From Alphaproteobacteria bacterium (GTDB taxonomy: Bacteria > Pseudomonadota > Alphaproteobacteria > CAAHEQ01 > UBA3637), in the NCBI GenBank assembly GCA_045118155.1, contig JBGUXS010000078.1, positions 443-64,442 of the forward strand: a stretch of 64,000 bases of DNA, given 5' to 3'. The position numbers and the translations under genes are program-made. The notes beneath the pieces are model-generated. The model did not search any database and had not been told where the DNA came from. It saw only the letters and a program-made list of their open reading frames with translations. Below, piece after piece: positions 3,351 through 53,805 of the stretch. Position 1 is the first letter of the stretch. Every line of letters begins with the position of its first letter.

Positions 3351-5522
3351 TTGGGCGCCTCTGACGCGATGTACACCGAACGTAAAAAATATACGTACTA
3401 TGTGGCAGCTATCGTAGTACTGGCTCTTTTTGTATCTTGGATAATGCTGTTAATTACAATTCCTTTACAAGCTTTTATCCGTCAAGGGTTAGATATTGAA
3501 GCTTGGAATTACAGTGTTTCCTTTTGGACACATGCTTGGCATCCAAAAGTCATTTTTCAAGTCCTCAATAGTTGGTTTGATTCCCTAAAAACGTTAAAAA
3601 ATCCCCATTGGACTTTATATTTACCCTTTTTATCCTTTTTTATTGGCTTTATCGTTTTAGTGATAGGGCTAAAAAAGAATCCCTTTGAATACACACCAAA
3701 TATTTTTGGGAATGGACGTTTAGCCACTTATGCTGATGTCAAAAAAATGAAATTATTTACTGGGTTCTGCATCGTTTTGGGACGTTTTAAAGGCAAGTTA
3801 TTAAAAATGCCAGAAACCTTAGCGGCCTTAGTTGTTGCGCCACCGGGGACTGGTAAAACCGCTGGGGTGGTGATTCCCACCATTTTTGAATCCCCAGGAT
3901 TGAGTATTATTGTAAACGACCCTAAACCAGAATTATGTTATACCACAACCGGATATCGGGCACAACAAGGGCCTGTGTTCGTTATTAACTGGGGGGCCGA
4001 TGATGAACCAGAAAAAGGGATTTTCTTCCCTAGTTGGAATCCACTTTCTGCTTCATGCTTACCAGCACCAGGTCCCGCCAGAGATATGTACATAGACTCT
4101 ATGGTGGCTATTTTGGTAGAAGTTAATGAAAAAGATCCTCACTGGGGGAAAACTGGGCGAAATGCTATGTCTGGTTTTTTGAACTTTATCGCCAGTAAAT
4201 GTGAACGGGCACTTGCTAACGATTACTTTACTTCACGTTTAATGGACGATTTATTTGATGATGAAGACGCGGCCGTTTTAGAAACATACTATGCGGATAT
4301 GAACGATCCTGATACAGGGTCTGCTTTACAGGCATTAAAAAATGGGTCTATGACACGGGAATCTTACGTCCCTATCGGTACATGGGCGGGGCTACCTTCT
4401 GTTTGGCAAGGAAAAGAACCTTGTATTGCTATGATTTTGGACTGGCTGACGGAAATGCAAATGAAAATCAATGCCGATATTAAACGCCGTATGGATGAAG
4501 GGGATCAAATGGCGGCCATGGCAGACCCCATGCGGGATCTATTGGAAAGTGCCATCAGTGAAGCAGCCCGCTATGGCTATGCCAGACGTTCTGTCACAGA
4601 ACTCAATCAATTATCCGCCACACCGGATAAGGAACGGGGGTCTATTTTATCCACGGCCCTTTCTGGGATCAGTATTTTTAAAAACTCGGCAGTGCGTTCT
4701 AGAACTAAGTTCAGTGACATTACTTTCCGTGATTTACGTGGGATGCGTGATCCTATTACAGGGGAACAAAAACCTATTTCGGTTTATCTATCCGTTAACC
4801 AGGTAGATGCCCAAGCCTTAAATGTCATTACTGGGATTTTTGTTGAATTGATGAGCAGTTTCTTAATCGCGAACCCCCCAAATTTTGTTGGGGCAGGCGG
4901 GAAAAAGGCGGGACCATTTCCTGTTTTATTTGTGCTTGACGAGTTTCCACAAATGCCAAAATTGGATGCTGTGAAAAACGGGCCTGCCGTAGGGCGGGGA
5001 CAGAAAGTTTCTTATTTGCTCATTGGGCAGGATCTTGGACAGATTTCTGGTAAATACGGGAAAGATGATTTGGAAACAATCATTACAACAACAGCCGCTA
5101 AAGTCATTCTTTCTCAAAACAACGAACAAACCGCTGAACGTTTTACAAAAATGATTGGGACTAAAACGATTCAAGTAACAAGTTCTAGCCGAACTGAAGG
5201 GATTTCCAACCAAAATAACCCCTTTGCGGCAAACGTAAGCCGTTCCTACCAAAGCTCAAACGTGGTCCAAGTATCTGATATGATGAGCTTAGATATGCTT
5301 AAACAATACGTTTTATTCCAAGGATATCTAAACCATCCTATCTTAGCGGATGCCCCTCGTTATTACTTAGATAAAGTCATGCAAAAGAAAGCGGCCATTC
5401 CCCCTTCCCCATTTGTTCCGTATTGGATTGTAGCGCAACGGGAAGATACCGATTTAGAAACATTAAAAGCTTTGATGCAAGAGGAATTAGCAGATTTGGA
5501 TATTATCATAGAGGATGAATAA
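3351..5522 (+). CDS. virD4: type IV secretion coupling protein (VirD4/TraG/DotL family ATPase)
   Basis: Two N-terminal TM helices. Walker A VVAPPGTGKTAGVVIPT. Walker B VLFVLDEFPQMPKLD. NDPKPEL motif. Acidic C-terminal tail. TTG start at 3351; alternative ATG at 3369. Confidence 0.8.
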   Translation: MGASDAMYTERKKYTYYVAAIVVLALFVSWIMLLITIPLQAFIRQGLDIEAWNYSVSFWTHAWHPKVIFQVLNSWFDSLKTLKNPHWTLYLPFLSFFIGFIVLVIGLKKNPFEYTPNIFGNGRLATYADVKKMKLFTGFCIVLGRFKGKLLKMPETLAALVVAPPGTGKTAGVVIPTIFESPGLSIIVNDPKPELCYTTTGYRAQQGPVFVINWGADDEPEKGIFFPSWNPLSASCLPAPGPARDMYIDSMVAILVEVNEKDPHWGKTGRNAMSGFLNFIASKCERALANDYFTSRLMDDLFDDEDAAVLETYYADMNDPDTGSALQALKNGSMTRESYVPIGTWAGLPSVWQGKEPCIAMILDWLTEMQMKINADIKRRMDEGDQMAAMADPMRDLLESAISEAARYGYARRSVTELNQLSATPDKERGSILSTALSGISIFKNSAVRSRTKFSDITFRDLRGMRDPITGEQKPISVYLSVNQVDAQALNVITGIFVELMSSFLIANPPNFVGAGGKKAGPFPVLFVLDEFPQMPKLDAVKNGPAVGRGQKVSYLLIGQDLGQISGKYGKDDLETIITTTAAKVILSQNNEQTAERFTKMIGTKTIQVTSSSRTEGISNQNNPFAANVSRSYQSSNVVQVSDMMSLDMLKQYVLFQGYLNHPILADAPRYYLDKVMQKKAAIPPSPFVPYWIVAQREDTDLETLKALMQEELADLDIIIEDE

Positions 5523-6065: not shown

Positions 6066-6524
6066 ATGAAATTAATACATGTTGTTTTAAAAGCTATTTA
6101 TAAAGATGCCGCTGTTGTTTTTAATCCTGTGGCTTTGACTGATGTTCAAAAGGCCTCTTTTGAAATTGTAAAAAATAAAGGGATTAAAATTCCTAATGAT
6201 TATGCTGCCTTTTTAACAGAAGTTGATGGATTATCCTGGAATGGATTGTATCTTTTTTCCTTAAATGAAAAGGAACGTCAAGATGGCGCTTTTGTGCACC
6301 CTGGCATTCTACAAACATACCATAAGGGCTTAAAAAATCCGATTTTTAAAAACAGGCTTTTATTAGGATACGGCCCTGAAGAAATCATTACATATCATGC
6401 GGGAAAAAAAGAATATCAAATCCTAAGTCAATATGATTACAGAATCCTAGTACGGCTTCCCCGCTTCTTTGATGTACTGTATCACTATACCCATGCTTTA
6501 TTTGAGGATGCCCCTAAGGACTAG
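6066..6524 (+). CDS. SUKH/Smi1-Knr4-like protein (immunity-protein fold), 152 aa
   Basis: IPNDYAAFLTEVDGLSWNGLYLFSL ... LLLGYGPEEIITYH resembles the SMI1/KNR4 (SUKH-1) signature. ATG at 6066 sits 1 nt after the previous stop. The track ORF 5916-6524 is an over-extension into the previous gene. Confidence 0.5.
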   Translation: MKLIHVVLKAIYKDAAVVFNPVALTDVQKASFEIVKNKGIKIPNDYAAFLTEVDGLSWNGLYLFSLNEKERQDGAFVHPGILQTYHKGLKNPIFKNRLLLGYGPEEIITYHAGKKEYQILSQYDYRILVRLPRFFDVLYHYTHALFEDAPKD

Positions 6525-6931
6525 GACAAATCTTGCTTAACATGTGGCGTTTGCAAAAGTTCTTCAATGTGATCGGCCACTTCTAAGGAAGTATCTTTTT
6601 TAAAGATTAAATCTGGCACAATTCTTAACCGGATTTCTTTTCCAATGCGGTAACGAAAAAGGCCTTTATGTGCATTTAACAACTTCACTTGTTCATTCAC
6701 ATCAATTCCCCCGATACCATTTACAAAAACACTTGCGTAACTCAAATCTGGGGAAATGTTAGCTTGTGTGATTTGTAAAGCCCTTGGTTTTAAACCTGAA
6801 ATAAACAAATCCTCTTTAACCAACATCTGTCCAATTAGACGCCGAATGCTTTCTGAAACCCGAAGTTGCCGTTGTGATTGTTCTGACGTTTTCATAGAAG
6901 CTATTATACCTTTTTTTCTTGTTCCTTTCAA
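6521..6931 (-). CDS. rbfA: ribosome-binding factor A
   Basis: RQLRVSESIRRLIGQML...ISPDLSYASVFV...IVPDLIFKKD matches the RbfA pattern. The true start may be the internal Met (MKTSEQ). Confidence 0.8.
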   Translation of the reverse strand: MKGTRKKGIIASMKTSEQSQRQLRVSESIRRLIGQMLVKEDLFISGLKPRALQITQANISPDLSYASVFVNGIGGIDVNEQVKLLNAHKGLFRYRIGKEIRLRIVPDLIFKKDTSLEVADHIEELLQTPHVKQDLS

Positions 6932-6939
6932 GAATCTTT

Positions 6940-7680
6940 TTAGAACAAGTATCTAAGCCCCACCAAAACCGTCTGACTTTTATTTTCAACAGAAATCGGA
7001 GTTTTAGAAACTTTATCTGTCAATGAAATACGGCCTGGATCCATATAACGGTACCCTACATCTAAATCCAAATCCCGACCTAAATGTGTCGTGACACCGG
7101 CGGCTACATTCCAAGCCATTTTATACTTCCATGTTTCATGATTATAATGGTTCGTTCCTTTGTCTGATTGAACACGAATACGGGATTGGCTGACCCCGAT
7201 TCCTCCCCCAATATAAGGGCTAAAAGTATAAGAAGGGAACAAATCATAATAGGCATTCAAAAAATAAGTATTCATTTTAATATTGCTTGCCCGAACCCGT
7301 GTTCCATCATCCAACTTAAATACCGCATCCCTTTTCCCATGAGAATTATAGCTACCTTCAAGTTCCGTCCGCACATTTCCAAGCATTGTTTTGACTTGAA
7401 CCCCCAAAGCCCCGCTTAATTCCATCAGCTCATCCTTTTTTTTCTGAGATTGCCCCCCAATAGCGGGTTCAAAATCCCGTCCTTTATAGCCGATTTTTGC
7501 CTCAACATAAACCCGTTGACTAGGTTCCAAAGAATTATCTTTCAGACTCTCTTCCATATATTTGTTCTTATCATCCATCACGTAAAAATCAGTATCTCCC
7601 GCATAAGAGGCATAGTAGACACCAGCTTGTGCGTAATAACTTGACAAAACAAAAAAAGTAAAAATAAGCTTCTTCATCAT
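6940..7680 (-). CDS. outer-membrane beta-barrel protein (OMP_b-brl / Omp25-opacity-like)
   Basis: Signal peptide MMKKLIFTFFVLSSYYAQA. Alternating hydrophobic beta-strands. C-terminal ...GLRYLF with a terminal Phe. Confidence 0.7.
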   Translation of the reverse strand: MMKKLIFTFFVLSSYYAQAGVYYASYAGDTDFYVMDDKNKYMEESLKDNSLEPSQRVYVEAKIGYKGRDFEPAIGGQSQKKKDELMELSGALGVQVKTMLGNVRTELEGSYNSHGKRDAVFKLDDGTRVRASNIKMNTYFLNAYYDLFPSYTFSPYIGGGIGVSQSRIRVQSDKGTNHYNHETWKYKMAWNVAAGVTTHLGRDLDLDVGYRYMDPGRISLTDKVSKTPISVENKSQTVLVGLRYLF

Positions 7681-7698
7681 TTCATCCTCCTAAACCAA

Positions 7699-9510
7699 TT
7701 AGTCCCGTGTTACTTCGGGAAGGGTAAAATTATTTTCATCAAAAACACAGTATGTTTCAACCCGGGCGCTTAACGTATTGTCCCCCAAAGTTCCCCCTGT
7801 AAAATTCGTGGAACCCGCCCCCGTAACATAGCCAACTTCTATCCCCCATACTCTGGCAATATCCGCTTCGGTTTCTGCCTTTGCTTTATGAACATTATTA
7901 ACAGCCACAGCCACCGTATAGCGCGACACATTTGCATTTGTGACATTTGTGGTAGATCCATTTGTTACACCTTCAAAACTGTTCAAAACGTCCTTTCCGG
8001 TTGTTCGGATCGGGGTAACCACCAAAGCGGCCTTATATCCGGCCGGGCATGCTGGCGTTGTCACATTTGCCCGCAAGCAATTGTTCGTATATCCACTACA
8101 GTTCCCTAAATTAGCTTCTGTCGTTAATTCGGTAATAGATTTTGAAACATAATTCGGCAAGATATCACTTAATCTCGCCCCACCACGAGAAGCCAACTTA
8201 ACATCATTCATCACAGACGTATAAGCTGGATCTACCTGATAATGATCATACGTTTCTGATTCATTAGCAGCTTGAGCATCCACAAATTCAACGGATGAAT
8301 CAATACCTTTTGCAGACACGACTGCATTTTCTACTAACTGACCATCTGCATCATAAGCATTCAGCGTAACTTTCCCCTTGGAAGATCCATCTGTGGCTTC
8401 TTCAGCTTCGGCCTTTAAGACATCACGTCCGGCACTATCTCTGGTAATAATCTGCCCATTAGCATTGACAATAACCCGACGTTTGCCCGTGGCATCATAA
8501 ACGGTCACTGCCCGCTTGTCATTATCCACAGGATCAGTGGAAATAACGGCCGTTGAAACAAAGGCTTGAATTGTTTCCCCATCGTTCACGGGATCATCCA
8601 TAGAAACCGCTTGACGTCCTACATGCAAATCATTGCGGACATAAACATTCCCCGGGGTTCCTGCCAATCCTTCATCCGTTCCGTTTTCAAGATGTTCTGC
8701 CCCTACCCAAAATAAGGGGGCACATTCTTCCCCTGCATCCAAAATTGTATAACCGGTTGCATCTTTTCTAAAGCAATTCGTATTTCCTTCGCCAATAGAA
8801 AAATAGCTCCAAGCATGCAAGTTTTTGAAAGCGGCTTCATCTTCTAAAGAAGAAAAGAGTGCCCCTTCATCAAATCCAGTAAATGCAACATAAGACGGGC
8901 TTACCACAGGTTCCATCATCAAAGATGCCCCTTCTAATTCCCAAGTTCCCATGGTGCCTACAAAATTATCCCCTTGGACGATACCCCCATCAGCCCCAAT
9001 CAAGGCAGCGATACTAGCCGCCCGCTTTAAATTCCATGTTCCTTGCGGCAGTGCCGATGCTTTAGGTAAGATAACTCCATAAAAAGAGGTCCCAACTTTT
9101 GCCCCTTCCGTATTTTCTAAATTTTTCCCAAAAAGGTAAAAATTGTATTTTTCAGCCGTACTTGATGTCAAAACATCCCCTGTGTACGTGTTATAGGTCA
9201 CTGGTAAGTATGTTGCCACATTTTTCCACAACGTGTTATATGAACAATTGGAAGTTTCTGTTCCAGACAATGCACAAACCCCACCACCGGCTGTGGCTAA
9301 TTCTTCAAGTTGCCTATGTTGCGTTTGGATAAAAGAGGAAAAAGCTTCCTTCATCGTACGCATTTCGGTCGCTACATTAACATTGGCTAGTTCCCGATTA
9401 CGTTGTGCCACTTGCCTATACAAAACAGGTCCCAACACCGCCAAGATCCCTAAGACGGCAATAGCTTCTATCATAATAGACCCAGATTGGGTTTTTACAG
9501 CTTTTTTCAT
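7699..9510 (-). CDS. large (603 aa) prepilin-type (class III signal peptide) protein, TadG/pseudopilin/minor-pilin-like putative adhesin
   Basis: N-terminus MKKAVKTQSG|SIMIEAIAVLGILAVLG: basic leader ending in Gly, Glu at +5, then a hydrophobic helix. The remainder is Thr/Asn/Gly/Asp-rich and predicted extracellular. Confidence 0.65.
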   Translation of the reverse strand: MKKAVKTQSGSIMIEAIAVLGILAVLGPVLYRQVAQRNRELANVNVATEMRTMKEAFSSFIQTQHRQLEELATAGGGVCALSGTETSNCSYNTLWKNVATYLPVTYNTYTGDVLTSSTAEKYNFYLFGKNLENTEGAKVGTSFYGVILPKASALPQGTWNLKRAASIAALIGADGGIVQGDNFVGTMGTWELEGASLMMEPVVSPSYVAFTGFDEGALFSSLEDEAAFKNLHAWSYFSIGEGNTNCFRKDATGYTILDAGEECAPLFWVGAEHLENGTDEGLAGTPGNVYVRNDLHVGRQAVSMDDPVNDGETIQAFVSTAVISTDPVDNDKRAVTVYDATGKRRVIVNANGQIITRDSAGRDVLKAEAEEATDGSSKGKVTLNAYDADGQLVENAVVSAKGIDSSVEFVDAQAANESETYDHYQVDPAYTSVMNDVKLASRGGARLSDILPNYVSKSITELTTEANLGNCSGYTNNCLRANVTTPACPAGYKAALVVTPIRTTGKDVLNSFEGVTNGSTTNVTNANVSRYTVAVAVNNVHKAKAETEADIARVWGIEVGYVTGAGSTNFTGGTLGDNTLSARVETYCVFDENNFTLPEVTRD

Positions 9511-9536
9511 GTGGCATTACCCCCTAATTTTTTCCT

Positions 9537-9565
9537 ATTATACACCTTTTTTTATTAAAAGTCAA
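9537..9565 (-). promoter_or_regulatory. consensus sigma70 promoter: TTGACT (9565-9560), 17 nt, TATAAT (9542-9537), driving the pilin-like/OMP genes
   Basis: Minus-strand sequence aaaaatacTTGACTtttaataaaaaaaggtgTATAATagg, followed by RBS agggggtaatgccacATG. Confidence 0.6.
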
Positions 9566-9662
9566 GTATTTTTAAAAAATCCCCCCTCAATTCTCATTCA
9601 ATCACTTTCTGCTTGAGTTTTTTTAGAAAAGAACTATCCTTCAGGACAGGAAGAGGTGCTTT

Positions 9663-10118
9663 ATGTCATATATTACACGAACGCTTGGGGAAGACGAAAA
9701 AGTTCAAGTTGTCGCTAAATTACATTGGATTTGCTATGTTTATCCGACCCTACTTCTTTGCTTATGTTTATTCTGTGGTTTACTGGGATTAGGGGCTAAT
9801 CCTGTTTTCTTACTAATCAGCTTTCTGATTGGGCTTTTGGCTTTTTACCATTTTTTAAATTTAAACGCCATAGAAATGGTTGTCACCAACAGACGGGTTG
9901 TCTGTCGCAAGGGTATTATTGGGATTAAAACTTGGGAACTAAAAAACAATAAGGTAGAATCCATAGAAGTCAAGCAATCTCTAAAAGGGCGTATTCTAGG
10001 TTATGCAACCTTATGGTTTTCTGGCACAGGCACTTCCAAGGTGTGCTTTCAAAACATTAAAAATCCTTGGTCCCTAAAGAAAAAAATAGATTTGATCATT
10101 GGGAAAGACGAAGATTGA
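9663..10118 (+). CDS. bacterial PH-domain (bPH_2, YdbS-like) membrane protein
   Basis: Two TM helices, then NRRVVCRKGIIGIKTWEL...SIEVKQSLKGRILGYATLWF, typical of DUF304/bPH_2. Confidence 0.65.
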   Translation: MSYITRTLGEDEKVQVVAKLHWICYVYPTLLLCLCLFCGLLGLGANPVFLLISFLIGLLAFYHFLNLNAIEMVVTNRRVVCRKGIIGIKTWELKNNKVESIEVKQSLKGRILGYATLWFSGTGTSKVCFQNIKNPWSLKKKIDLIIGKDED

Positions 10119-10163: not shown

Positions 10164-10652
10164 TTAACGTTTGGAGAATTGGAACCGTTTTCTGGCCTTG
10201 GAGAACCCAGGCTTTTTCCGTTCCACCACCCGAGAATCCCGTGTTAAGAAACCGGCCCGTTTTAATAAGGTATGAAGTTCTGGTTCAAATAAATCCAAGC
10301 ATTTACTGATCCCATGACGCAAAGCATAAGCTTGCCCAGACAAACCACCACCACAAACGGTACATTGGACATCAAATTCACCAGCCCGGTTCGTAACCAT
10401 AAATGGTTGATTGATAATCATTTGCAACACTGGGCGTGGGAAATATTCAGCCATTTTCCGATCATTAACCGTGATAGTTCCTTTCCCCGGTTTAATTATC
10501 ACGCGGGCAATAGCATTTTTCTTTTTACCCGTGGCCTGAGAACGTCCCAAAGCGTCTTTCTTAGGTTGTCTTTTCGGTGCTTGTTCAGCCGCCGCCGGTG
10601 CTTCTGTCACCGTCTTTAAATCTTGCATTGATGTTACTGTTTCTTTTGTCAT
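10164..10652 (-). CDS. rpsI: 30S ribosomal protein S9
   Basis: C-terminus ...[18 protein letters not shown]. The N-terminal extension may be over-called. Confidence 0.9.
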
Positions 10653-11128
10653 TAAGCACCTCTTTTATTCTTCGGATTTTTAGAAGCAATATCCAACGGG
10701 GTCGGATTTTGCGCCTGATGCGTATGTTCTGCCCCAGCAAAAACACGTAATTTCGTCATTTGTTTTGCCCCTAATGGGTTCCGAGAAATCATGCGTTTTA
10801 CCGCCCGAAATAAAACCTCTTCAGGATGCTTTTCAAACATTTCTTTGATGGTTGTTTCTTTCAATCCACCCAAGTATCCTGAATAGTTATAATACATTTT
10901 TTCTGCCATTTTTTTGCCGGTCAATTTGACCTTAGCCGCATTAATGACCACCACATAGTCCCCGCAATCCTGACTAGGGGTATAACATGGTTTATTCTTC
11001 CCCCGTAAAATTGTGGCAATCTGACTGGCCAAACGCCCTAACACAACACCGTCGGCATCCACCAAATACCATTTGACATCACAATCCGCCGGTTTAAGGG
11101 TTTTCGTTGTTTTTGTTAATGTTGTCAT
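10652..11128 (-). CDS. rplM: 50S ribosomal protein L13
   Basis: [26 protein letters not shown]... Confidence 0.92.
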
Positions 11129-11157
11129 TTGTCATCCTTTTTAAATAATACGTTTTT

Positions 11158-11185
11158 ATTTTAACGTATTTTTTACGAAAGTCAA
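11158..11185 (-). promoter_or_regulatory. putative rplM-rpsI promoter: TTGACT (11185-11180), 16 nt, TAAAAT (11163-11158)
   Basis: Same aaaatacTTGACTtt context as the other promoters in the window. Confidence 0.45.
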
Positions 11186-11203
11186 GTATTTTTTATGTTT
11201 TTT

Positions 11204-11227
11204 GGTGCGGTAATATTATACCGCACC
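11204..11227. other. perfect 24-nt palindrome / 10-bp stem hairpin GGTGCGGTAATATTATACCGCACC in the pnp-rplM spacer
   Basis: Perfect inverted repeat flanked by TTTTTT on the 5' side and AAAAA on the 3' side (plus sense). These flanks are the reverse of a canonical terminator. Confidence 0.5.
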
Positions 11228-11235
11228 AAAAATAC

Positions 11236-13428
11236 TTAATCTTCTTTATTTTCTAGCTTTTGTTCTTCAGTTTTTTCGGATTTATGCTCTTTTTCAGGTT
11301 TTTCTGCCTTTTCCGGCACAGGAATTTCTTCCCCTGTTTCCTGATTAACACACTTCATACTCAAACGAATTTTGCCTTTTTCAAGCCCCATGAATTTGAC
11401 CTTAACACGATCACCTTCTTTTAGAACATCAGTAACTTGTTTTACACGATGTTGGGCAATTTCAGAAATATGTACCAATCCGTCTTGCTTGCCACAGAAG
11501 TTCACAAAAGCCCCAAAATCCATGATTTTCACAACGGTTCCATCATAAATTTGACCAATTTCAGGTTCTGCCACAATATTTTTAATCATGGCTAAAGCTT
11601 TCTGGGCAGATTCTTCAGATAAAGAAGCAATTTGAATCACCCCATTATCATCAATATCAATTTTAGCCCCAGATTGTTCCACAATATCCCGAATCGTTTT
11701 ACCCCCAGATCCAATCACATCTTTAATTTTATCTTTGGCAATTTGGATTAAGGTAAGGCGTGGAGCATGAGCGCTAATTTCTGTCCGAGGTCCCTGCAAT
11801 GTTTCAGCAATTTTTCCCAAGATGAATAACCGCCCTTCTTTAGCTTGTTTTAAGGCTTTTTCCATAATTTCACGTGTAATGGATGTAATTTTAATATCCA
11901 TTTGCAAAGCGGTTACCCCATCGGCAGTTCCAGCCACTTTAAAATCCATATCCCCTAGGTGATCTTCATCCCCCATAATATCGGATAGGATAACAAAGTT
12001 ATCGGCTTCTTTCACAAGCCCCATTGCAATCCCCGCGACTGGCTTTTTCAAAGGGACCCCAGCATCCATTAATGCCAATGTTCCCCCACAAACCGTCGCC
12101 ATAGAAGAAGAACCGTTAGATTCCATAATATCTGAAACTACCCGAATGGAATAAGGGAATTCTTCCTTACTAGGCAACATCGGGTGCAATGCCCGCCAAG
12201 CCAATTTTCCGTGACCGATTTCACGACGTCCCGGACTACCAAGGCGACCAACTTCCCCCACAGAATACGGTGGAAAGTTATAGTGGAGTAAGAAACTTTC
12301 CTTATATTCCCCAGATAGGCAATCCACCACTTGTTCATCATCCGCAGTCCCCAACGTTGCTGTCACTAACGCTTGAGTTTCCCCACGCGTGAATAAAGCC
12401 GATCCATGCGCCCGACTTAACAATCCAACTTCGCTTTCAATCGGCCGAATAGTTTTTGTATCCCGCCCATCAATACGAATCCCCGTGTTTAAAACCGCTT
12501 CCCGCATAACTTTGGATTCCAAAGAATGGAAAATTTGATCACACATGTAAGGTTCCACATCTGGATTGTCGGCAAATAAACCTTGAGCCTTTTCCCGTAA
12601 TTCCGCAAGTTTATCAAGTCTAACCAATTTTTCGTGAATTTGGTAAGCCGCGGCAATATCTGCCCGCAATTCTTTTTCCAATGTTTGTTCCACTAAATCA
12701 AAAGAAGCTGGCTTTTCTGGAACTTCCCAAGCATCTTTAGCACATTCTTCAGCAAGTTCAATAATCATTTTGATAACGGGCTTTAATTGTTCATGCCCAA
12801 AATAAACCGCTTGCAACATGACATCTTCTGGTAATTCTTGTGCTTCGGATTCAACCATTAACACCCCTTCAAGGGTTCCGGCTACAACCAAATCCAACGC
12901 GGATTTTTCAAGATCTTTTGGACTAGGATTTAAGACATAATTTCCATCAATATACCCAACACGTGCCCCCGCGATAGGTCCTAAAAAAGGCAAGCCGGAT
13001 AACGTCAAGGCCGCGGATGACGCAATCATTGCCACAATATCAGCTTGCGTTTCTTTTTCAAAGTTAATTAATGTCGCGGTTACTTGTGTTTCGTTGTTAA
13101 AACCTTTTACAAACAAAGGCCGAATAGGCCGATCAATTAACCGTGATGTTAAAATTTCGTATTCACTAGGCTTTCCTTCCCGTTTGAAAAAGCCCCCAGG
13201 GAAACGCCCCGCCGCATATGTTTTTTCCTGATAATTCACCGTTAGCGGAATAAAATCTTCAAATTTTTCTGGTGGAACCTTACTGGCACATACGGCTGCA
13301 TGTACCATTGTTTCCCCGTATTTTACAATAACGGAACCATCTGCCTGACGTCCAATCTTACCTGTTTCAATACTTAAGGTTTTGTCTCCCCATTGAATTT
13401 CTTTACGATAAATTTTAAATAATGACAT
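11236..13428 (-). CDS. pnp: polynucleotide phosphorylase
   Basis: RNase PH domains, KH and S1 domains. K/E-rich C-terminal extension ([25 protein letters not shown]). Confidence 0.95.
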
Positions 13429-13485
13429 ATTTTCTCTTTCCTTCCAATAAAAAGGGCCTTTACCCTTGCAAAGGCCCTGACAAAC

Positions 13486-13755
13486 TTACTTGCGCAAACC
13501 TAAGCGCCGTAAAATATCTTCATACCTCTTCACTTCTTTCTTTTTCAGGTATGTAAGCAGTGACCGTCGTTCTGCCACCATTTTCAACAATCCACGCCGT
13601 GAATGGAAATCCTTAGCATGTGTTTTCATGTGTTCTGATAAGTCCTTAATCCGTTCGGTTAAAATAGCAATTTGAACCTCTGGTGAACCGGTATCAGTTG
13701 GTGACAAAGCAAATTCTTTGATCAACTGTTGTTTTTTTTCTTTACTTAACGACAT
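13486..13755 (-). CDS. rpsO: 30S ribosomal protein S15
   Basis: 89 aa, ...[23 protein letters not shown]... Confidence 0.92.
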
Positions 13756-14668
13756 CCTCTATCCTTTCTATTTGTTCAATTAACATTCGTTTTGGCTTCA
13801 AGATGTATCCATCCCAAAAGGCCAACACCACACTTTGATTCTGCCAAGTCACAAGAACCATTCCCTTTTTTTCTGGGAGAAGTCCCTGCTTTACACGCAA
13901 TGCCTGTCCTTGGCACAACCGCCTTGCTTCTTCTTCCGAAACGGCCAGAACCAAGATGTCGTCCAGTACGGTCGCAATCGGTTTCAATAACAAGACTCTG
14001 GCATTATACTCTAGTTTTTCAATAAAATCAAGTGAAATCTCTTCCTTTGCCGTAAAGCACCCACAAGAGGTCCGACATAATTTTGAAATTGTGCCACAAC
14101 TCCCTAAGGCCAAGGCCAAATCTCGTCCCAAAGAACGAACATATGTCCCTTTGGAACAACGTACAGAAAAACTAGCTTCATGCCCCGCTTTTTTTAATAA
14201 TTTCAATTCATAAATCTGAATTTCCCTAGAGGCCAATTCAACCTTTTCCCCATTGCGGGCCAAAGCATAGGCCCGCTTTCCCCCTACTTTAAGGGCACTA
14301 TATACGGGGGGAACTTGACGAATTTTCCCTAAAAACTTGGGTAAAATTGCCCTAATTTCCTTTGCCGTTGGAATATAGGTACTTTGGGAAATAACTTCCC
14401 CTTCCAAATCATCGGTAGTGGTCTGTACCCCAAAACGAATGGTAAAATCATAGGCTTTTTCCCCATCCATCACATAAGGAATTAATTTTGTTGCTTTTCC
14501 AAATGCAATCGGCAGCACCCCTGTTGCCAGTGGGTCCAAAGTCCCTGTATGCCCTATTTTAGCAGGATGATAAAGGCGTTTCAAACGCCCAACCACCTGT
14601 GCAGACGTCAAACCCGCTGGTTTATCAATAACCAACCATCCAGATAAAAAATTAATTTCCTTAGGCAT
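13742..14668 (-). CDS. truB: tRNA pseudouridine(55) synthase
   Basis: [17 protein letters not shown]...[16 protein letters not shown]. Confidence 0.92.
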
Positions 14669-27459: not shown

Positions 27460-27758
27460 TGCCACCATTTTTAAGCCCTGATGAAGATTCGTGTCTTTTA
27501 CACATTTTATTGGTTCCTAATGCTAAAGAAAATAAGATTTATGGTCTTTTTAATGAACGATTAAAACTTTATATTTCTGCCCCAGCTGTGGACGGAAAAG
27601 CGAATAAAGCTTTAATTAAATACCTGGCTGATCTCTTTAACCTAAAAAAAAATCAGATTTCCTTGATACAAGGGGAAAGATCCCATCAAAAAACAGTACG
27701 ACTAGATGCCCCTATTGACCACATCTGTACTTGTTTAAGTCAACATATTTCCGTGTAA
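27456..27758 (+). CDS. DUF167 (YggU) family protein
   Basis: LKLYISAPAVDGKANKALIKYLADLF... Confidence 0.7.
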   Translation: MMPPFLSPDEDSCLLHILLVPNAKENKIYGLFNERLKLYISAPAVDGKANKALIKYLADLFNLKKNQISLIQGERSHQKTVRLDAPIDHICTCLSQHISV

Positions 27759-28805
27759 AATACGTGTAATCTCGCTTCCTTGCATCAAAGAAAAACCTAA
27801 GGCTTGGGCTTGTTGTATTTCTTGAGGGGTTTGAATATCAAACAAGATAATTTTTTCTTTAGGATAATTCAAAGTAGCAGCCCATTTCATCTGTTGACTA
27901 TTAATCTTTAGGTAATGCATCGGGATTTTATCCCATGCTAAATAGGATATTTCCTCCGGAATGCGTAATAAAAAGAGGGATTGTTGATAACAAGGTATTT
28001 TTTGAATACTTTGCCATAAATCCCGTTCCCAAAGAAAATCTGATAAACTTATTTCATAAGAAATACCTTGATGTTGATACAATTGGTGCATTTCCTGATA
28101 AACGGGTTGGGTTAAAAGATAAGGACTCGCAGAAAAAACTCCTCCTTGTGTTTTGGGCAATTCCTTTTTTAAAATTTTTGTATACAGCGCATTCTTAAAG
28201 GCCCTTTTCAAATATGTATCAGAATCCAATATCACCTTTGGAAATAGAACTTGACGGACATCAATATCTTTACAAAAAACACTGGTAAATACAGGAACCA
28301 TCTCGGTTAAATCATGAACCTGACAAATGCATTGATGCCGTGTTAAATGTGAAACATCCGCTGTTTTTAGCTCTGATAAAATATGTGTGAGAGTTGGGGT
28401 ATCCAAGGGCAATGAAGGAATTTTTTGAAGCACTTTTAAATCAGAAAAATCTGCTGTTGGGGTTAGCTCTTGATGATTAATTTTATGGATCAAAGCATTA
28501 AAATCTGTGATTAAATTAAAAAATGATAATTTATGTTCTTGGAAAAAGGATTTTTCCAGCCCCTTTAATTTCAAGGAAAGCAACATCATATCCTGTAATT
28601 TATTATGGGCAAAAAAGGCAACGCTATCCCCTTCGCTTAAAAAGAACAATTTCGTTTGATATGTCTGTTCAAAAGAACTCAAAAAATGCAAAAGAACCTT
28701 TTTTTTCTCATCTTCTTTAGGTAAAGGAATATAAAGAGCATGCCCTTTAAATGTTCTTTTTTCAAGATATTTGAGATAGTCAAAAACACTATTATACCGC
28801 ATCAT
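27735..28805 (-). CDS. hypothetical protein with a degenerate EAL-like C-terminal domain
   Basis: C-terminal ...YLKINSQQM...KIILFDIQTPQEIQQAQALGFSLMQG mirrors the EAL end (KID...EGVE...GCD..QG) but lacks the catalytic residues. Confidence 0.5.
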   Translation of the reverse strand: MMRYNSVFDYLKYLEKRTFKGHALYIPLPKEDEKKKVLLHFLSSFEQTYQTKLFFLSEGDSVAFFAHNKLQDMMLLSLKLKGLEKSFFQEHKLSFFNLITDFNALIHKINHQELTPTADFSDLKVLQKIPSLPLDTPTLTHILSELKTADVSHLTRHQCICQVHDLTEMVPVFTSVFCKDIDVRQVLFPKVILDSDTYLKRAFKNALYTKILKKELPKTQGGVFSASPYLLTQPVYQEMHQLYQHQGISYEISLSDFLWERDLWQSIQKIPCYQQSLFLLRIPEEISYLAWDKIPMHYLKINSQQMKWAATLNYPKEKIILFDIQTPQEIQQAQALGFSLMQGSEITRILHGNMLT

Positions 28806-29874
28806 ATCCCCTTAAATGTTGCACACACACGCATTGTGATGCTTGATGCGGGATCGCCCCCATTTGCATACACGTTTGTAAAGCACAATCTCCCCCATAT
28901 GGACACGTTTTTTTTCGAGAAGCCGCATGAATCAAATCAATAAAATCACCTTGAAAAAAGGTATATGGGGAAGACAGAATTTGAGTTAATTTTTCTTGCG
29001 TATCCACTCCTGTTACAAAAACAGGAACATGATTGATTGATTGTGTTAAACAAACTTCTACGGGAAGAAGTAAAAAATCAGCTTCTAATAAATCAAAACG
29101 ATAAAAGGCCGTTTCTGCAGTAATGCCCCCAATACCTAACCGATACTGTTTTCCTGGACGAGTTAGGGCTTCCTTATACAGATTTTTATTTAACAAGACT
29201 TCTGCAATATCTAAAATAATCCAAACTGGGTCATTATTTTCAATCCAAGCACTTTCCAACGTTCCTTGCACCATCAAAGGCAATGTCGTTTGTTTAAACA
29301 GCTCTTTATTTGGGTGTTGCAATAATTGTTTCTGTATTTTCTGAACTAACCACATTGGAAGCTGATCCATATTGTTTTTTAAGGTCCATGTATATCCCCA
29401 CAGAGAGTTGCTCCCCTTTTGATAAATTACCCGCCTAAACCAACTATTTTTTTCGGGAATATCTTTTAAAAAAGCCTCATAATCAACCTCTTGATTCGTT
29501 TGCTTTTTAGCTATCTGAATCAGGGACAAAACCCCCATCAAATCCTGTGGTAAATGGAACAAGCGTACATTTTCTTCTTTTTTTCCTGTTTGAATTTGAA
29601 AAAATGTTTGAATTTGGCGCATCACATCCACAACTTGATGTTCATCAAGATCAACCCCTATTAATAAACGATCTTGTTGTTCAAATGTAAAAAGCCGACA
29701 ATATTCATACGCTAATAACGGTTCTAATAAATGTTCTATGACGTGCATCAACCTTTCGGCCCCTGGCAGACCTAATAATTGACTTGTCCCTATCCAAAGG
29801 ACAACCGACGGTGTTTCTAAAGCAGCGACACGCTTTATTGTTTCTAAGGCCAGTTGTTCTTGTGTCTCATACAT
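28792..29874 (-). CDS. hypothetical protein with a degenerate EAL-like domain and a Cys-rich C-terminal tail
   Basis: YRLGIGGITAETAFYRFDLLEADFLLLPVEV...VPVFVTGVDTQEKL...FQGDF parallels the EAL DDFGTG...KIDRSF...EGVET...QGY layout. Tail TCPYGGDCALQTCMQMG...QCVCVQH. Confidence 0.5.
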   Translation of the reverse strand: MYETQEQLALETIKRVAALETPSVVLWIGTSQLLGLPGAERLMHVIEHLLEPLLAYEYCRLFTFEQQDRLLIGVDLDEHQVVDVMRQIQTFFQIQTGKKEENVRLFHLPQDLMGVLSLIQIAKKQTNQEVDYEAFLKDIPEKNSWFRRVIYQKGSNSLWGYTWTLKNNMDQLPMWLVQKIQKQLLQHPNKELFKQTTLPLMVQGTLESAWIENNDPVWIILDIAEVLLNKNLYKEALTRPGKQYRLGIGGITAETAFYRFDLLEADFLLLPVEVCLTQSINHVPVFVTGVDTQEKLTQILSSPYTFFQGDFIDLIHAASRKKTCPYGGDCALQTCMQMGAIPHQASQCVCVQHLRGYDAV

Positions 29875-32655: not shown

Positions 32656-32831
32656 CGTAGTTTTTCCTCACAGCAACACTTTTCTTCAACAAACCATATA
32701 CGATCTTCAAATTCGGATTTTTTCCCCTTATTGAATTGGCTAACAGGACGAAAATACCCCATAACCCGTGTCCAACATTCCACCGCTTGACGTTCATTAG
32801 AAAATTTTTCTAAAATTTGGTTATCTGTCAT
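32643..32831 (-). CDS. stand-alone glycyl-radical domain (NrdD C-terminal-like) small protein, 62 aa
   Basis: RVMGYFRPVSQFNKGKKSEFEDRIWF matches the class III RNR glycyl-radical motif (RVCGY...N.GK..E..DR). ATGA overlap with the nrdD stop. Confidence 0.6.
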   Translation of the reverse strand: MTDNQILEKFSNERQAVECWTRVMGYFRPVSQFNKGKKSEFEDRIWFVEEKCCCEEKLRQAV

Positions 32832-34897
32832 GCTTTGTTCTCCTTTTCTGCAAGTTCTTGACGTTTTTTTTCAATGAGTTCCGCATCACACTTTGGGCAG
32901 AACTTGTGTTCCCCACTAATATACCCATGCTTGGGGCAAATAGAATAGACAGGGGTAATAGAAACATAAGGAAGATGATAATTTTCTAATACCCGTCTAA
33001 TAAGTGATTTACAAACACTTGCTGAAGAAATCCGTTCATTCATATACAGGTGCAAAACCGTTCCCCCTGTATACTGTGTTTGCAATTCATCTTGATAATC
33101 CAACGCTTTAAACGGATCATCTGTGAAGTTCTGTGGTAATTGAGAAGAGTTTGTATAATAGGGGGCCTCTTTCTTTCCTGCTTGAATAATACCAGGATAG
33201 CGTTTTTGATCTTCTTTGGCAAAACGATATGTTGTCCCTTCAGCTGGCGTTGCTTCCAAATTGTACATATTTCCTGTTTCTGCTTGGAAATCCAGCATTT
33301 TTTCCCGAATATGTGTTAAAAATTCTTTAGCCATCGCCCGCCCTTTTTCCGAAGCAATGTATTCTTCATCATTAGTAAAGTTCCGAATCATTTCATTAAT
33401 ACCATTAACCCCAATCGTGGAAAAATGATTTCGGAATGTTCCTAAATATCGCCGTGTATAAGGATACAACCCCCGATCCATGTGCATTGAAATGGTTTTA
33501 CGTTTAATTTCTAAGGAAGTCTTCGCTAATTCCAGTAATTCATCCAAACGTTTATACAATTCCTCTTTCTTCCCCTTATACAGGTATCCCAAACGGGCAC
33601 AGTTAATTGTAACAACCCCAATAGACCCCGTTTGTTCTGCTGAACCAAATAAACCACCACCTCGTTTTTTCAATTCCGTCAAATCCAACCGTAACCGACA
33701 ACACATTGAACGAATATCTGAAGGCTTCATATCAGAACTAACATAGTTTGAAAAATAGGGTAATCCATATTTAGCCGTCATTTCAAATAACAATTCCGTA
33801 TTTTCAGAATCCCATGGGAATTCATTTGTAATATTGTATGTCGGGATAGGGAAAGTAAACGGCCGCCCTTTGGCATCCCCACTTCCCATAACTTCTAAAT
33901 AAGCCCTATTAATCATATCCATTTCTTTTTGCAGATCACCATAAACAAAATCTTGTTCCACCCCCCCAATGATAGGGTGCCGATTCTTCAAATCTTCAGG
34001 GCAATTCCAATCAAAAGTTAAGTTCGTAAAGGGTGTCTGTGTCCCCCAACGCGATGGTACATTCAAGTTAAAGATGAAGGATTGCATCGCTTGTTTTACT
34101 TCTTCATAAGGTAATTTTTCAATTCGTATAAATGGTGCTAAGTACGTATCCACAGAAGAAAACGCCTGTGCCCCAGCCCATTCATTCTGCAAAGTCCCCA
34201 AGAAATTAATCATCTGGCTAAACGCAGAAACAAGGTGTTTTGGCGGTTTAGATTCTGTCTTATTGGGAACCCCATTAAAACCTTCTTCTAATAAAACCCT
34301 TAAGGACCACCCTGCACAATACCCACTCAACATATCCAAATCATGAATATGATAATCCCCATTTCGGTGAGCTTCCCCAATTTCTGGCGTATACACGTGG
34401 CTCAACCAATAATTGGCCACCACCTTTCCTGCCGTATTTAAAATCAATCCCCCTAAGGAATATCCTTGATTAGCATTTGCGTTCACCCGCCAATCTGACC
34501 GATCTAAATATTCATTAATAGAAGCCACCGCATCAATAACCGTTTTCTTATCATTCCGCATTTTTCCGCGTTGTTCACGGTACACGATATAAGCCCGGGC
34601 AGTTTTGTAATAATTAGAGGAAATTAAAACCTGTTCAACCACATCTTGAATTTGCTCAATATTAGGATAAACCCCGAAAGCAAACCGATGCTTTAAAACC
34701 TTAATAACTTGTCTTGTTAATAACCACGCTTCATCTTGACCGAATTCAGCCGTTGCTTCCCCAGCTTTCAAAATAGCAACCATAATTTTAGTCACATCAA
34801 ACGGATACTGTTGCCCATCCCGTTTAATTACATAGCTCAACGGACTAATATCAATGGTTACATTTAGCGGCTGGGCTCCTGTCAAAACTTGCAACAT
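32828..34897 (-). CDS. nrdD: anaerobic (class III) ribonucleoside-triphosphate reductase, large catalytic part without a glycyl-radical domain
   Basis: N-terminal ATP-cone (VIKRDGQQYPFDVTKI...AYIVYREQR). SMCCRLRLD region. C-terminal Zn ribbon CPKHG...CPKC. The ORF ends before any RVxGY motif. Confidence 0.75.
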   Translation of the reverse strand: MLQVLTGAQPLNVTIDISPLSYVIKRDGQQYPFDVTKIMVAILKAGEATAEFGQDEAWLLTRQVIKVLKHRFAFGVYPNIEQIQDVVEQVLISSNYYKTARAYIVYREQRGKMRNDKKTVIDAVASINEYLDRSDWRVNANANQGYSLGGLILNTAGKVVANYWLSHVYTPEIGEAHRNGDYHIHDLDMLSGYCAGWSLRVLLEEGFNGVPNKTESKPPKHLVSAFSQMINFLGTLQNEWAGAQAFSSVDTYLAPFIRIEKLPYEEVKQAMQSFIFNLNVPSRWGTQTPFTNLTFDWNCPEDLKNRHPIIGGVEQDFVYGDLQKEMDMINRAYLEVMGSGDAKGRPFTFPIPTYNITNEFPWDSENTELLFEMTAKYGLPYFSNYVSSDMKPSDIRSMCCRLRLDLTELKKRGGGLFGSAEQTGSIGVVTINCARLGYLYKGKKEELYKRLDELLELAKTSLEIKRKTISMHMDRGLYPYTRRYLGTFRNHFSTIGVNGINEMIRNFTNDEEYIASEKGRAMAKEFLTHIREKMLDFQAETGNMYNLEATPAEGTTYRFAKEDQKRYPGIIQAGKKEAPYYTNSSQLPQNFTDDPFKALDYQDELQTQYTGGTVLHLYMNERISSASVCKSLIRRVLENYHLPYVSITPVYSICPKHGYISGEHKFCPKCDAELIEKKRQELAEKENKA

Positions 34898-53441: not shown

Positions 53442-53517
53442 GTTTTTTTCATAAAAGCATTTTCTGCCTTTACTTTTCATCTCTTTTTGATTATGCTTGT
53501 TTCTACAAGGGGGTAAT

Positions 53518-53805
53518 ATGCGGGAACCTATTTTAAAAGCGGTCAGTATGCCGGCGCGTATTTTATGGGCGCCGTCGGTTCCGGCGTTGTTAAACATGGT
53601 TTGTCAATTACCTTTCATGTTGTTCTATGCGGGACAAGGGGGCAACCCTTTGCTATTCATGGGAACTATCATCGGGGTTCATGCCTTAATTGCTCTTTAT
53701 GCCGCGAAAGAACCTCATTTATCTAATATGTTCAAAGCCCAAGGTCCTTTCTTTAAGAAAAGTTCACAAATGTATACCTCATCAGGAAGAAAATACGCCC
53801 CATGA
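53518..53805 (+). CDS. virB3: type IV secretion system protein VirB3 (TrbD-like)
   Basis: Two TM helices. ILKAVSMPARILWAPSVPALLNMV...LLFMGTIIGVHALIALYAAKEPHL matches the VirB3 family. RBS AAGGGGG. ATGA overlap with virB4. Confidence 0.75.
   Translation: MREPILKAVSMPARILWAPSVPALLNMVCQLPFMLFYAGQGGNPLLFMGTIIGVHALIALYAAKEPHLSNMFKAQGPFFKKSSQMYTSSGRKYAP

Follow-up and report, generated by a model that had tools for sequence, protein, structure and literature searches.

A probable large modular type IV pilin-like protein paired with a small outer-membrane protein in an uncultured gut/rumen alphaproteobacterium

CofB of the enterotoxigenic Escherichia coli (ETEC) CFA/III pilus and TcpB of the toxin-coregulated pilus (TCP) that Vibrio cholerae makes are large type IVb minor pilins for which location at the pilus tip, initiation of assembly and binding of a ligand or partner have been described (PMC5207764, PMC6048534, PMC8179133), and CofB is laid out as a pilin module with a beta-repeat and then a beta-sandwich module behind it (PMC8179133). 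These proteins served as the model for interpreting a gene encoding a 603-amino-acid (aa) protein in a 64-kb stretch of DNA (hereafter, the window) from an uncultured alphaproteobacterium (assembly GCA_045118155.1, contig JBGUXS010000078.1, positions 443 to 64,442). The analysis indicates that this protein is fairly likely to be a large modular type IV pilin-like protein, probably a tip or minor pilin acting as an adhesin and/or as an initiator of assembly, and that it is encoded next to a small outer-membrane protein (OMP). An earlier reading of the nucleotide sequence (the original prediction) had pointed to a prepilin-type protein at this place. The coordinates of the features are collected in Table 1.

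The 603-aa protein (family c0) opens with MKKAVKTQSGSIMIEAIAVLGILAVLGPVLYRQ, in which the leader MKKAVKTQSG is followed by SIMIEAIAVLGILAVLG and Glu stands at +5 counted from Gly. The N-terminus thus consists of a hydrophilic leader ending in Gly and then ~21 mostly hydrophobic residues (MKKAVKTQSG, then SIMIEAIAVLGILAVLGPVLY), and that of the family fits a class III signal peptide as PMC8179133 defines it. Gly10 and Glu15 were invariant in 87 aligned homologues, and the G-x4-E pattern with its hydrophobic tract was found in 237 of the 239 members collected, the two exceptions being gene calls that are truncated. Among these 239, leaders have a median length of 11 residues, and Gly is followed by Ser (in 119) or Ala (in 106). 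Given that Glu5 is required for docking of a pilin into the growing filament (PMC5207764), its invariance favours polymerisation over mere anchoring. An AlphaFold2 (AF2) model of residues 1-215 (predicted local distance difference test, pLDDT, 86; predicted TM-score, pTM, 0.78) showed a 57-residue helix (residues 7-63) packed on a beta-sheet, and a fold search with this N-terminal module returned pilins, which suggests a pilin fold for the modelled part. In addition, a profile search of the PDB gave Geobacter PilA-N (E 0.04), in an alignment that starts at the Gly and keeps register through alpha-1, and pilin-type matches that were weak and below threshold were obtained to ComGG (window protein), to GspG (14 of 22 family members) and to PpdD-type models. 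The class III N-terminus claimed in the original prediction was therefore borne out, and its choice of a minor rather than a major pilin is supported by the size and the modular C-terminal part of the protein.

Beyond the pilin module the protein is modular and in places highly conserved. The full-length AF2 model (87-sequence alignment) had a mean pLDDT of 73, with high values for residues 5-210 and 454-590, and no match at E<0.001 was returned when the whole model was compared with the PDB using Foldseek. Four cysteines (246, 263, 488, and 588) were invariant in the 87-sequence alignment, and the most conserved motif of the family, DPAYTSVMNDVKLASRGGARLSDILPNY, contains D427, S432, D436, L439, R442, G443, G444, L447, S448, L451, and Y454 without variation; in the form DPAYTSVMNDIRLxSRGGARLSDILPNY it is common to both size classes of the family, including a subfamily of ~1000 aa. 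The composition of the 603-aa protein is A 11%, V 10%, T 10%, G 9%, and N 7%. The protein is 82% identical to its counterpart in a close relative (L005), as against 94-97% for the housekeeping neighbours, a faster divergence that fits with a putative exposure at the cell surface.

The family comprised 124 clusters at 90% identity in a word-indexed search and 479 representatives at 50% identity in an exhaustive search, with at least 277 matches among GTDB species representatives. Its two size classes, of about 520-760 aa and about 900-1400 aa, have the N-terminal ~200 residues in common. All named members are annotated as 'hypothetical protein' and come from uncultured gut or rumen Alphaproteobacteria, including Proteobacteria bacterium CAG:495, and only metagenome-assembled genomes (MAGs) of gut and rumen Alphaproteobacteria were found as hosts. 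The exact sequence of the window protein was not on record, and the GTDB representative set does not contain the window species, the best match there being 36% identical. A scan of JGI metagenomes yielded no more than four short contigs, which have the same arrangement. The 603-aa protein matched no Pfam or NCBIfam model above threshold, and a profile built from 87 members reached nothing beyond the family itself and no annotated distant relatives; many modular pilins similarly escape detection in that their extra modules lack a database signature (PMC8179133). A literature search on pili in RF32-type gut Alphaproteobacteria returned nothing relevant. The family had not been annotated before and belongs to a kind of protein that is already known. 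As a separate observation, genes of the ~1000-aa subfamily, together with their small c1 partner gene (described below), adjoin the flagellar genes fliL/fliM in the CAG:495-like clade (L059-L086, ~20 loci; e.g., L066 9307-13048), which may reflect clade synteny rather than a functional link.

The gene for the 603-aa protein is preceded by an intergenic region of 152 nt containing a putative sigma-70-type promoter, TTGACT-17-TATAAT, the -10 hexamer of which ends 27 nt ahead of the ATG. A promoter scan of the 64-kb window gave four sites with at least 11/12 consensus positions and none with 12/12, so that the site, originally called a perfect consensus and the best in the window, matches at 11/12 and shares the top score with three others. 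At a lenient threshold, the region held 11 promoter-like sites compared to 9.2 +/- 2.9 in shuffled sequence, i.e., no excess. What stood from the original prediction is a strong-looking promoter, which moreover proved to be conserved: in L005 both hexamers are unchanged and 4 of the 17 spacer bases altered, and the orthologue at 45% identity, which lies at a different genomic place (L088 4920-5010), has a perfect TTGACA-17-TATAAT (12/12) that beats every site in the window. Since the hexamers are kept in L005 and the 45% orthologue has a perfect promoter, the site is more than a chance match, and we treat the promoter of the pair as real and conserved and its strength as predicted. A further 11/12 promoter-like site, TTGACA-18-TACAAT, lies within the coding region of the same gene (9142-9171, minus strand), ~340 nt past its start.

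The two genes of the pair are separated by an 18-nt gap in which no terminator-like site was found. The second gene encodes a 246-aa beta-barrel protein that scored above the gathering threshold of Pfam OMP_b-brl (PF13505; 42.7 bits, cutoff 28.7, 8.9e-11) and slightly above the Pfam cutoffs for Opacity (30.6 vs 21) and Surface_Ag_2 (24.8 vs 22); its N-terminus, MMKKLIFTFFVLSSYYAQA, is a Sec-type signal and its C-terminus, ...GLRYLF, has an aromatic end. It did not qualify as a member of the Rickettsia Adr family (NF052636), for which it obtained 45.7 bits, and because this lies far under the cutoff of 210, no specific adhesin function can be assigned to it. The pairing is kept in relatives at 99% identity (L090-92), in L005 (OMP 88% identical) and in the 45% relatives (L088/89; OMPs 52%). 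We do not take this OMP family (c20) to be generally associated with the pilin-like family, since adjacency of the two genes is confined to the window clade and, in a loose form, a CAG:495-like clade.

To place the pair in a wider context, ~90 loci of the family were fetched and open reading frames (ORFs) were called and clustered in 87 of them. A partner gene, c1, was found immediately 5' of the pilin-like gene in 73 of the 87 loci, typically with a gap of 12-24 nt. The c1 proteins are bitopic and 200-600 aa long, open with a transmembrane helix (M-L/V/Y-F/Y-W...), and have neither a leader nor Glu5; some bear a Laminin_G_3 lectin-type domain. Beyond the c0-c1 pair, the neighbourhood differs from clade to clade. 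Searches of the window and L005 with tblastn and a hidden Markov model (HMM) found no c1 partner, and the window clade has instead the OMP gene after the pilin-like gene. In two relatives (L054 and L061), the gene has, at a distance of 0.5-3 kb and in convergent orientation, an operon for TcpQ, a secretin, PAP_PilO, the product of an unknown gene, a T2SSE ATPase, and a T2SSF platform protein. This operon encodes a type IVb-like pilus machine; the stretches read at these two loci showed no prepilin peptidase. The same group of MAGs holds many other pilin-like genes. Among them is a second modular family that appears to have expanded, with the N-terminal G followed by RSMVEMLGVLAIIGVLS, lengths of 133-1015 aa and in some members EGF/teneurin-like modules; of 87 loci of 20 kb sampled at random from gut alphaproteobacterial MAGs, 16 carried it.

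Table 1. Positions of the features of the pair, of its surroundings in the window, and of selected genes in relatives
Feature	Sequence	Position	Strand	Remarks
Coding sequence, 603-aa pilin-like protein	window	7699-9510	minus	ORF; family c0
Leader peptide MKKAVKTQSG	window	9481-9510	minus	residues 1-10; predicted cleavage after Gly10
Pilin module	window	8866-9480	minus	residues 11-215; hydrophobic alpha-1N with Glu15 (= +5), alpha-1 to ~residue 63, alpha/beta globular part
Middle region	window	8296-8865	minus	residues ~216-405; variable, partly low-confidence; invariant Cys246 and Cys263; CxPLFWVG motif; beta-hairpin repeats ~330-405
Most conserved family motif	window	8149-8232	minus	residues 427-454; low AF2 confidence
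C-terminal beta-sandwich module	window	7741-8148	minus	residues ~455-590; invariant Cys488 and Cys588
Sigma-70-type promoter, putative	window	TTGACT 9565-9560; TATAAT 9542-9537	minus	17-nt spacer; 11/12 consensus positions
Shine-Dalgarno-like AGGGGG	window	9520-9525	minus	9 nt 5' of the pilin-like ATG; kept in L005 and L090
Coding sequence, 246-aa outer-membrane beta-barrel protein	window	6940-7680	minus	co-oriented with the pilin-like gene, apparently same operon
AGGAGG ribosome-binding site of the OMP gene	window	7686-7691	minus	within the gap after the pilin-like stop codon
rbfA	window	6521-6931	minus	Pfam RBFA 5e-22; longest ORF from TTG 6931; likely start ATG 6895
Bacterial PH-domain (bPH_2) gene	window	9663-10118	plus	divergent, between pilin-like gene and rpsI; missing from the original prediction
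rpsI/rplM, pnp, rpsO, truB	window	10164-14668	minus	
c1 partner gene, examples	relatives	L001 8480-9985; L003 9110-9985; L007 8271-9977		70 further loci
Type IVb-like pilus operon	relatives	L061 1007-8875; L054 14559-21181		
Second pilin-like family, members	relatives	L054 1082-1483 and 13042-14460; L029 1-1352; L049 17593-19482; L025 17227-20274		

In the mechanism that we propose, the hydrophobic alpha-1N segment would put the 603-aa protein into the inner membrane, and the 10-residue leader would be cut off behind Gly10 by a prepilin peptidase whose gene would lie at another place in the genome. The mature protein, with Ser11 as its first residue and Glu at position 5, would then be extracted by a type IV filament machine (most likely type IVb-like, as in the relatives) and set at or near the pilus tip, where the beta-repeat and beta-sandwich modules might serve as an adhesin and/or an initiator of assembly in the manner of CofB and TcpB. 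In the window clade the gene appears to have lost its usual membrane partner and to form a two-gene operon with the small OMP, and given that a strong conserved sigma-70 promoter is predicted to drive the pair, it looks like a surface-attachment module of an uncultured gut/rumen alphaproteobacterium. Cleavage, assembly into a filament, location at the tip, adhesion, and a functional link to the OMP are steps that we infer; the proposal is supported by an operon layout and a promoter that relatives at 45-99% identity have in common.

Several points weigh against a tip pilin. Known tip minor pilins are low-abundance proteins encoded inside a pilus operon, and a near-consensus promoter together with an orphan location would be unusual for a low-copy pilin of this kind. 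In the window and at nearly all of the 87 loci the gene stands as an orphan, and where type IVb operons were found, in L054 and L061, it adjoins them from outside in convergent orientation. The original prediction had listed no pilus assembly genes in the window, and this held across the 64 kb, in which type IV pilus, type II secretion system (T2SS), and tad genes were all absent. No prepilin peptidase or pilus-assembly gene was seen in the window or in ~25 kb of further contigs of the clade, and the window clade likewise yielded nothing with the TcpQ, secretin, PilO, ATPase, and platform sequences of L061 as queries (window) or in scans (all loci) for Walker boxes of the GspE type and GxGD motifs of prepilin peptidases; the machinery is hence hypothetical in the window organism. 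The curated N-terminal models PF07963 (N_methyl) and TIGR02532 do not match the window protein, and PF07963 matched none of the 22 members at E<=0.1. The +1 residue in the family is Ser/Ala rather than Phe/Met, which is probably why these models miss it. The AF2 model is poor at residues 217-240 and 407-451, and the structural similarity scores are modest. Finally, the part given to the OMP is one that we infer purely from its adjacency.

The best-surviving alternative, which we regard as possible but clearly less probable than the tip pilin, is a pilin-like envelope protein that does not polymerise: its N-terminus would be an inner-membrane anchor or a short T2SS-like pseudopilus element, and its periplasmic part would work with a partner (c1, or the OMP here), for instance as an envelope-spanning tether. 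The bitopic c1 gene directly upstream at most loci, the OMP gene in the adjacent position in the window clade, the near-total absence of the gene from pilus operons, the weak matches to the T2SS pseudopilin GspG, and a strong promoter suggesting an abundance atypical of a tip pilin are all consistent with it. However, the strict invariance of Gly-1 and Glu+5 would not be expected of a mere anchor, and bulky tip-only pseudopilins such as GspK are without Glu5 (PMC5207764). The Laminin_G_3 domain on some partners, moreover, suits an exposed rather than a periplasmic site, and a type IVb operon with a secretin adjoins the gene in two relatives.

A second, distinctly improbable alternative is that in the window clade the protein with the class III signal is no longer a pilus subunit and has become an abundant, pilus-independent surface or envelope-spanning adhesin that works with the OMP or a type IV secretion system (T4SS), its host being possibly devoid of type IV pilus machinery. 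This reading draws on the loss of the partner gene, the operon with the OMP behind a consensus promoter, and the two placements of the pair beside scattered virB/virD4 genes. The T4SS genes in question are chromosomal: virD4 lies at 3351-5522 in the window, followed by a 180-aa ORF and then by a SUKH/YrhA-family immunity-type protein (~6066-6524), and virB3-virB4 lies at 53497-56237 beside gatCAB, with neither virB2 nor virB5-B11 present in the 64 kb. The pair is ~1.4 kb from the virD4 operon, in convergent orientation, in the window and its close relatives, and in the 45% relative L088 it stands directly behind virB3-virB4 with a gap of 66 nt. These two distinct placements, both beside T4SS genes, would also suit a third alternative in which the pair serves the clade's VirB/VirD4 T4SS as an accessory module at the surface, e.g., a contact adhesin and an outer-membrane component aiding the engagement of target cells. 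We rate this link as a minor rival with little probability because VirB4/VirD4 was found within 10 kb at none of the other ~80 family loci; in addition, the pair carries its own promoter in both arrangements, the arrangements are only two in number, and their adjacency to T4SS genes could be due to chance or to shared local synteny. To our knowledge, no component of a VirB-type T4SS has a class III signal. Last, an ordinary Sec signal peptide or signal anchor on a secreted or periplasmic protein of unknown function, which the original prediction had itself named as the competing outcome, could draw on the positively charged n-region, the hydrophobic core, and the sub-threshold scores of the curated pilin models but was discarded as highly improbable, since an invariant charged Glu sits inside the core exactly five residues past the invariant Gly, no AXA-type site follows the core, the modelled alpha-1 helix runs unbroken to ~residue 63, and the fold search returns pilins.

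The position of the pair in the chromosome was compared among relatives. The order on the minus strand of the window is sufE-truB-rpsO-pnp-rplM-rpsI, then, further on, the pilin-like gene, the OMP gene, and rbfA, such that rbfA lies downstream of pnp; infB and nusA are absent from the window. The canonical order rimP-nusA-ylxR-infB-rbfA-truB-rpsO-pnp is retained in a more distant relative (L098). In L099, whose polynucleotide phosphorylase (PNPase) is 83% identical, the genes run sufE-truB-rpsO-pnp-rplM-rpsI as in the window, followed by a small ORF and a two-component system, and no pilin-like gene, OMP gene or rbfA was found after rpsI. L088 comes from the same sample as L099 and presumably from that organism. 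Given the arrangements in L098, L099, and L088, rbfA and truB were split before, and independently of, the placing of the pair. The view of the original prediction that an infB-rbfA-truB-rpsO-pnp linkage is interrupted here thus failed in the synteny comparison, and an insertion of the pair that splits infB-rbfA-truB is ruled out by L098 and L099. To judge from its placements, the pair behaves as a movable two-gene unit, and GC content and skew around it gave no sign of a recent foreign origin. The rbfA gene has a promoter-like TTGAAA-17-TATAAT of its own at 6931-6903; since this site covers the 5' end of the longest ORF and the gene calls in L005 and L090 are 124-127 aa long, the start is probably the ATG given in Table 1. 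The gene may also receive read-through from the pair. The PNPase of the window organism, ~73% identical to those of hundreds of gut MAGs, puts it in one broad group with them; just two closer lineages are known, at 97% and 83%. Elsewhere in the window, a 689-aa NrdD-like anaerobic ribonucleotide reductase (32828-34897) was recognised by eye, which we take to be consistent with an anaerobic life in the gut or rumen, and two neighbouring ORFs of 356 and 360 aa (27735-29874, minus strand), beside a response-regulator/PP2C-type gene, suggested no function on inspection by eye.

Animal microbiomes commonly include uncultured Alphaproteobacteria of the gut and rumen, about whose attachment to hosts or partner cells next to nothing is known. 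A family of ~479 clusters at 50% identity, so far labelled hypothetical throughout, becomes readable as that of a large pilin-like adhesin or initiator accompanied by a conserved partner gene, and it supports the view that modular pilins are far more widespread than domain databases show. The invariant Gly-1/Glu+5, the four cysteines, and the SRGGARLSDILPNY motif offer targets for studies of colonisation, and for annotation there is a case for a new family model; the understanding of type IV filaments itself is unchanged. The main interest thus lies in the biology and annotation of the uncultured gut Alphaproteobacteria.

The locus can be set beside several known systems. TadG, TadE, and TadF of the Flp/tad pili share the hydrophobic N-terminal motif G-(A/S)-x-x-x-E, occur in Alphaproteobacteria and, in the case of TadG, are also large; however, the 22 members had no Pfam match to TadE (PF07811) or Tad (PF13400) at E<=0.1 and no tad genes lay in the window or near any of the ~90 loci fetched, so that a TadG/TadE identity is ruled out. 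The only pilus machinery seen beside the family is type IVb-like, and the 'TadG-like' label of the original prediction falls. The OMP resembles the small 8-10-stranded barrels (OMP_b-brl, Opacity, Rickettsia Adr, and Anaplasma Surface_Ag_2) in its Sec signal, C-terminal aromatic residue, and OMP_b-brl score, and differs from Adr in lying far below the cutoff of that model. PilB (vWA) and PilC (lectin) of Streptococcus sanguinis embody the same concept of a functional module grafted onto a pilin carrier, but here the host is a diderm, the extra modules match no known domain, and in relatives it is the partner, rather than the pilin, that bears a lectin-type domain. CofB and TcpB differ from the window protein in that no sequence similarity is detectable beyond alpha-1, the leader of the family is short (~11 residues) and its +1 residue Ser/Ala, the gene stands apart from pilus operons behind a strong promoter of its own, and the family has its own invariant motif, SRGGARLSDILPNY. 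They act together with a secreted protein (for example, CofJ or TcpF), whereas the window protein is paired with an OMP and most relatives with a bitopic partner. At the same time, both have a class III signal with Glu5, belong to a similar size class (423-520 aa vs 603 aa), and may be matched by the predicted succession of a pilin module and then beta-repeat and beta-sandwich modules with several conserved cysteines in the model of the window protein; and the type IVb machinery beside two of its relatives (TcpQ, PAP_PilO) is of the same kind as theirs.

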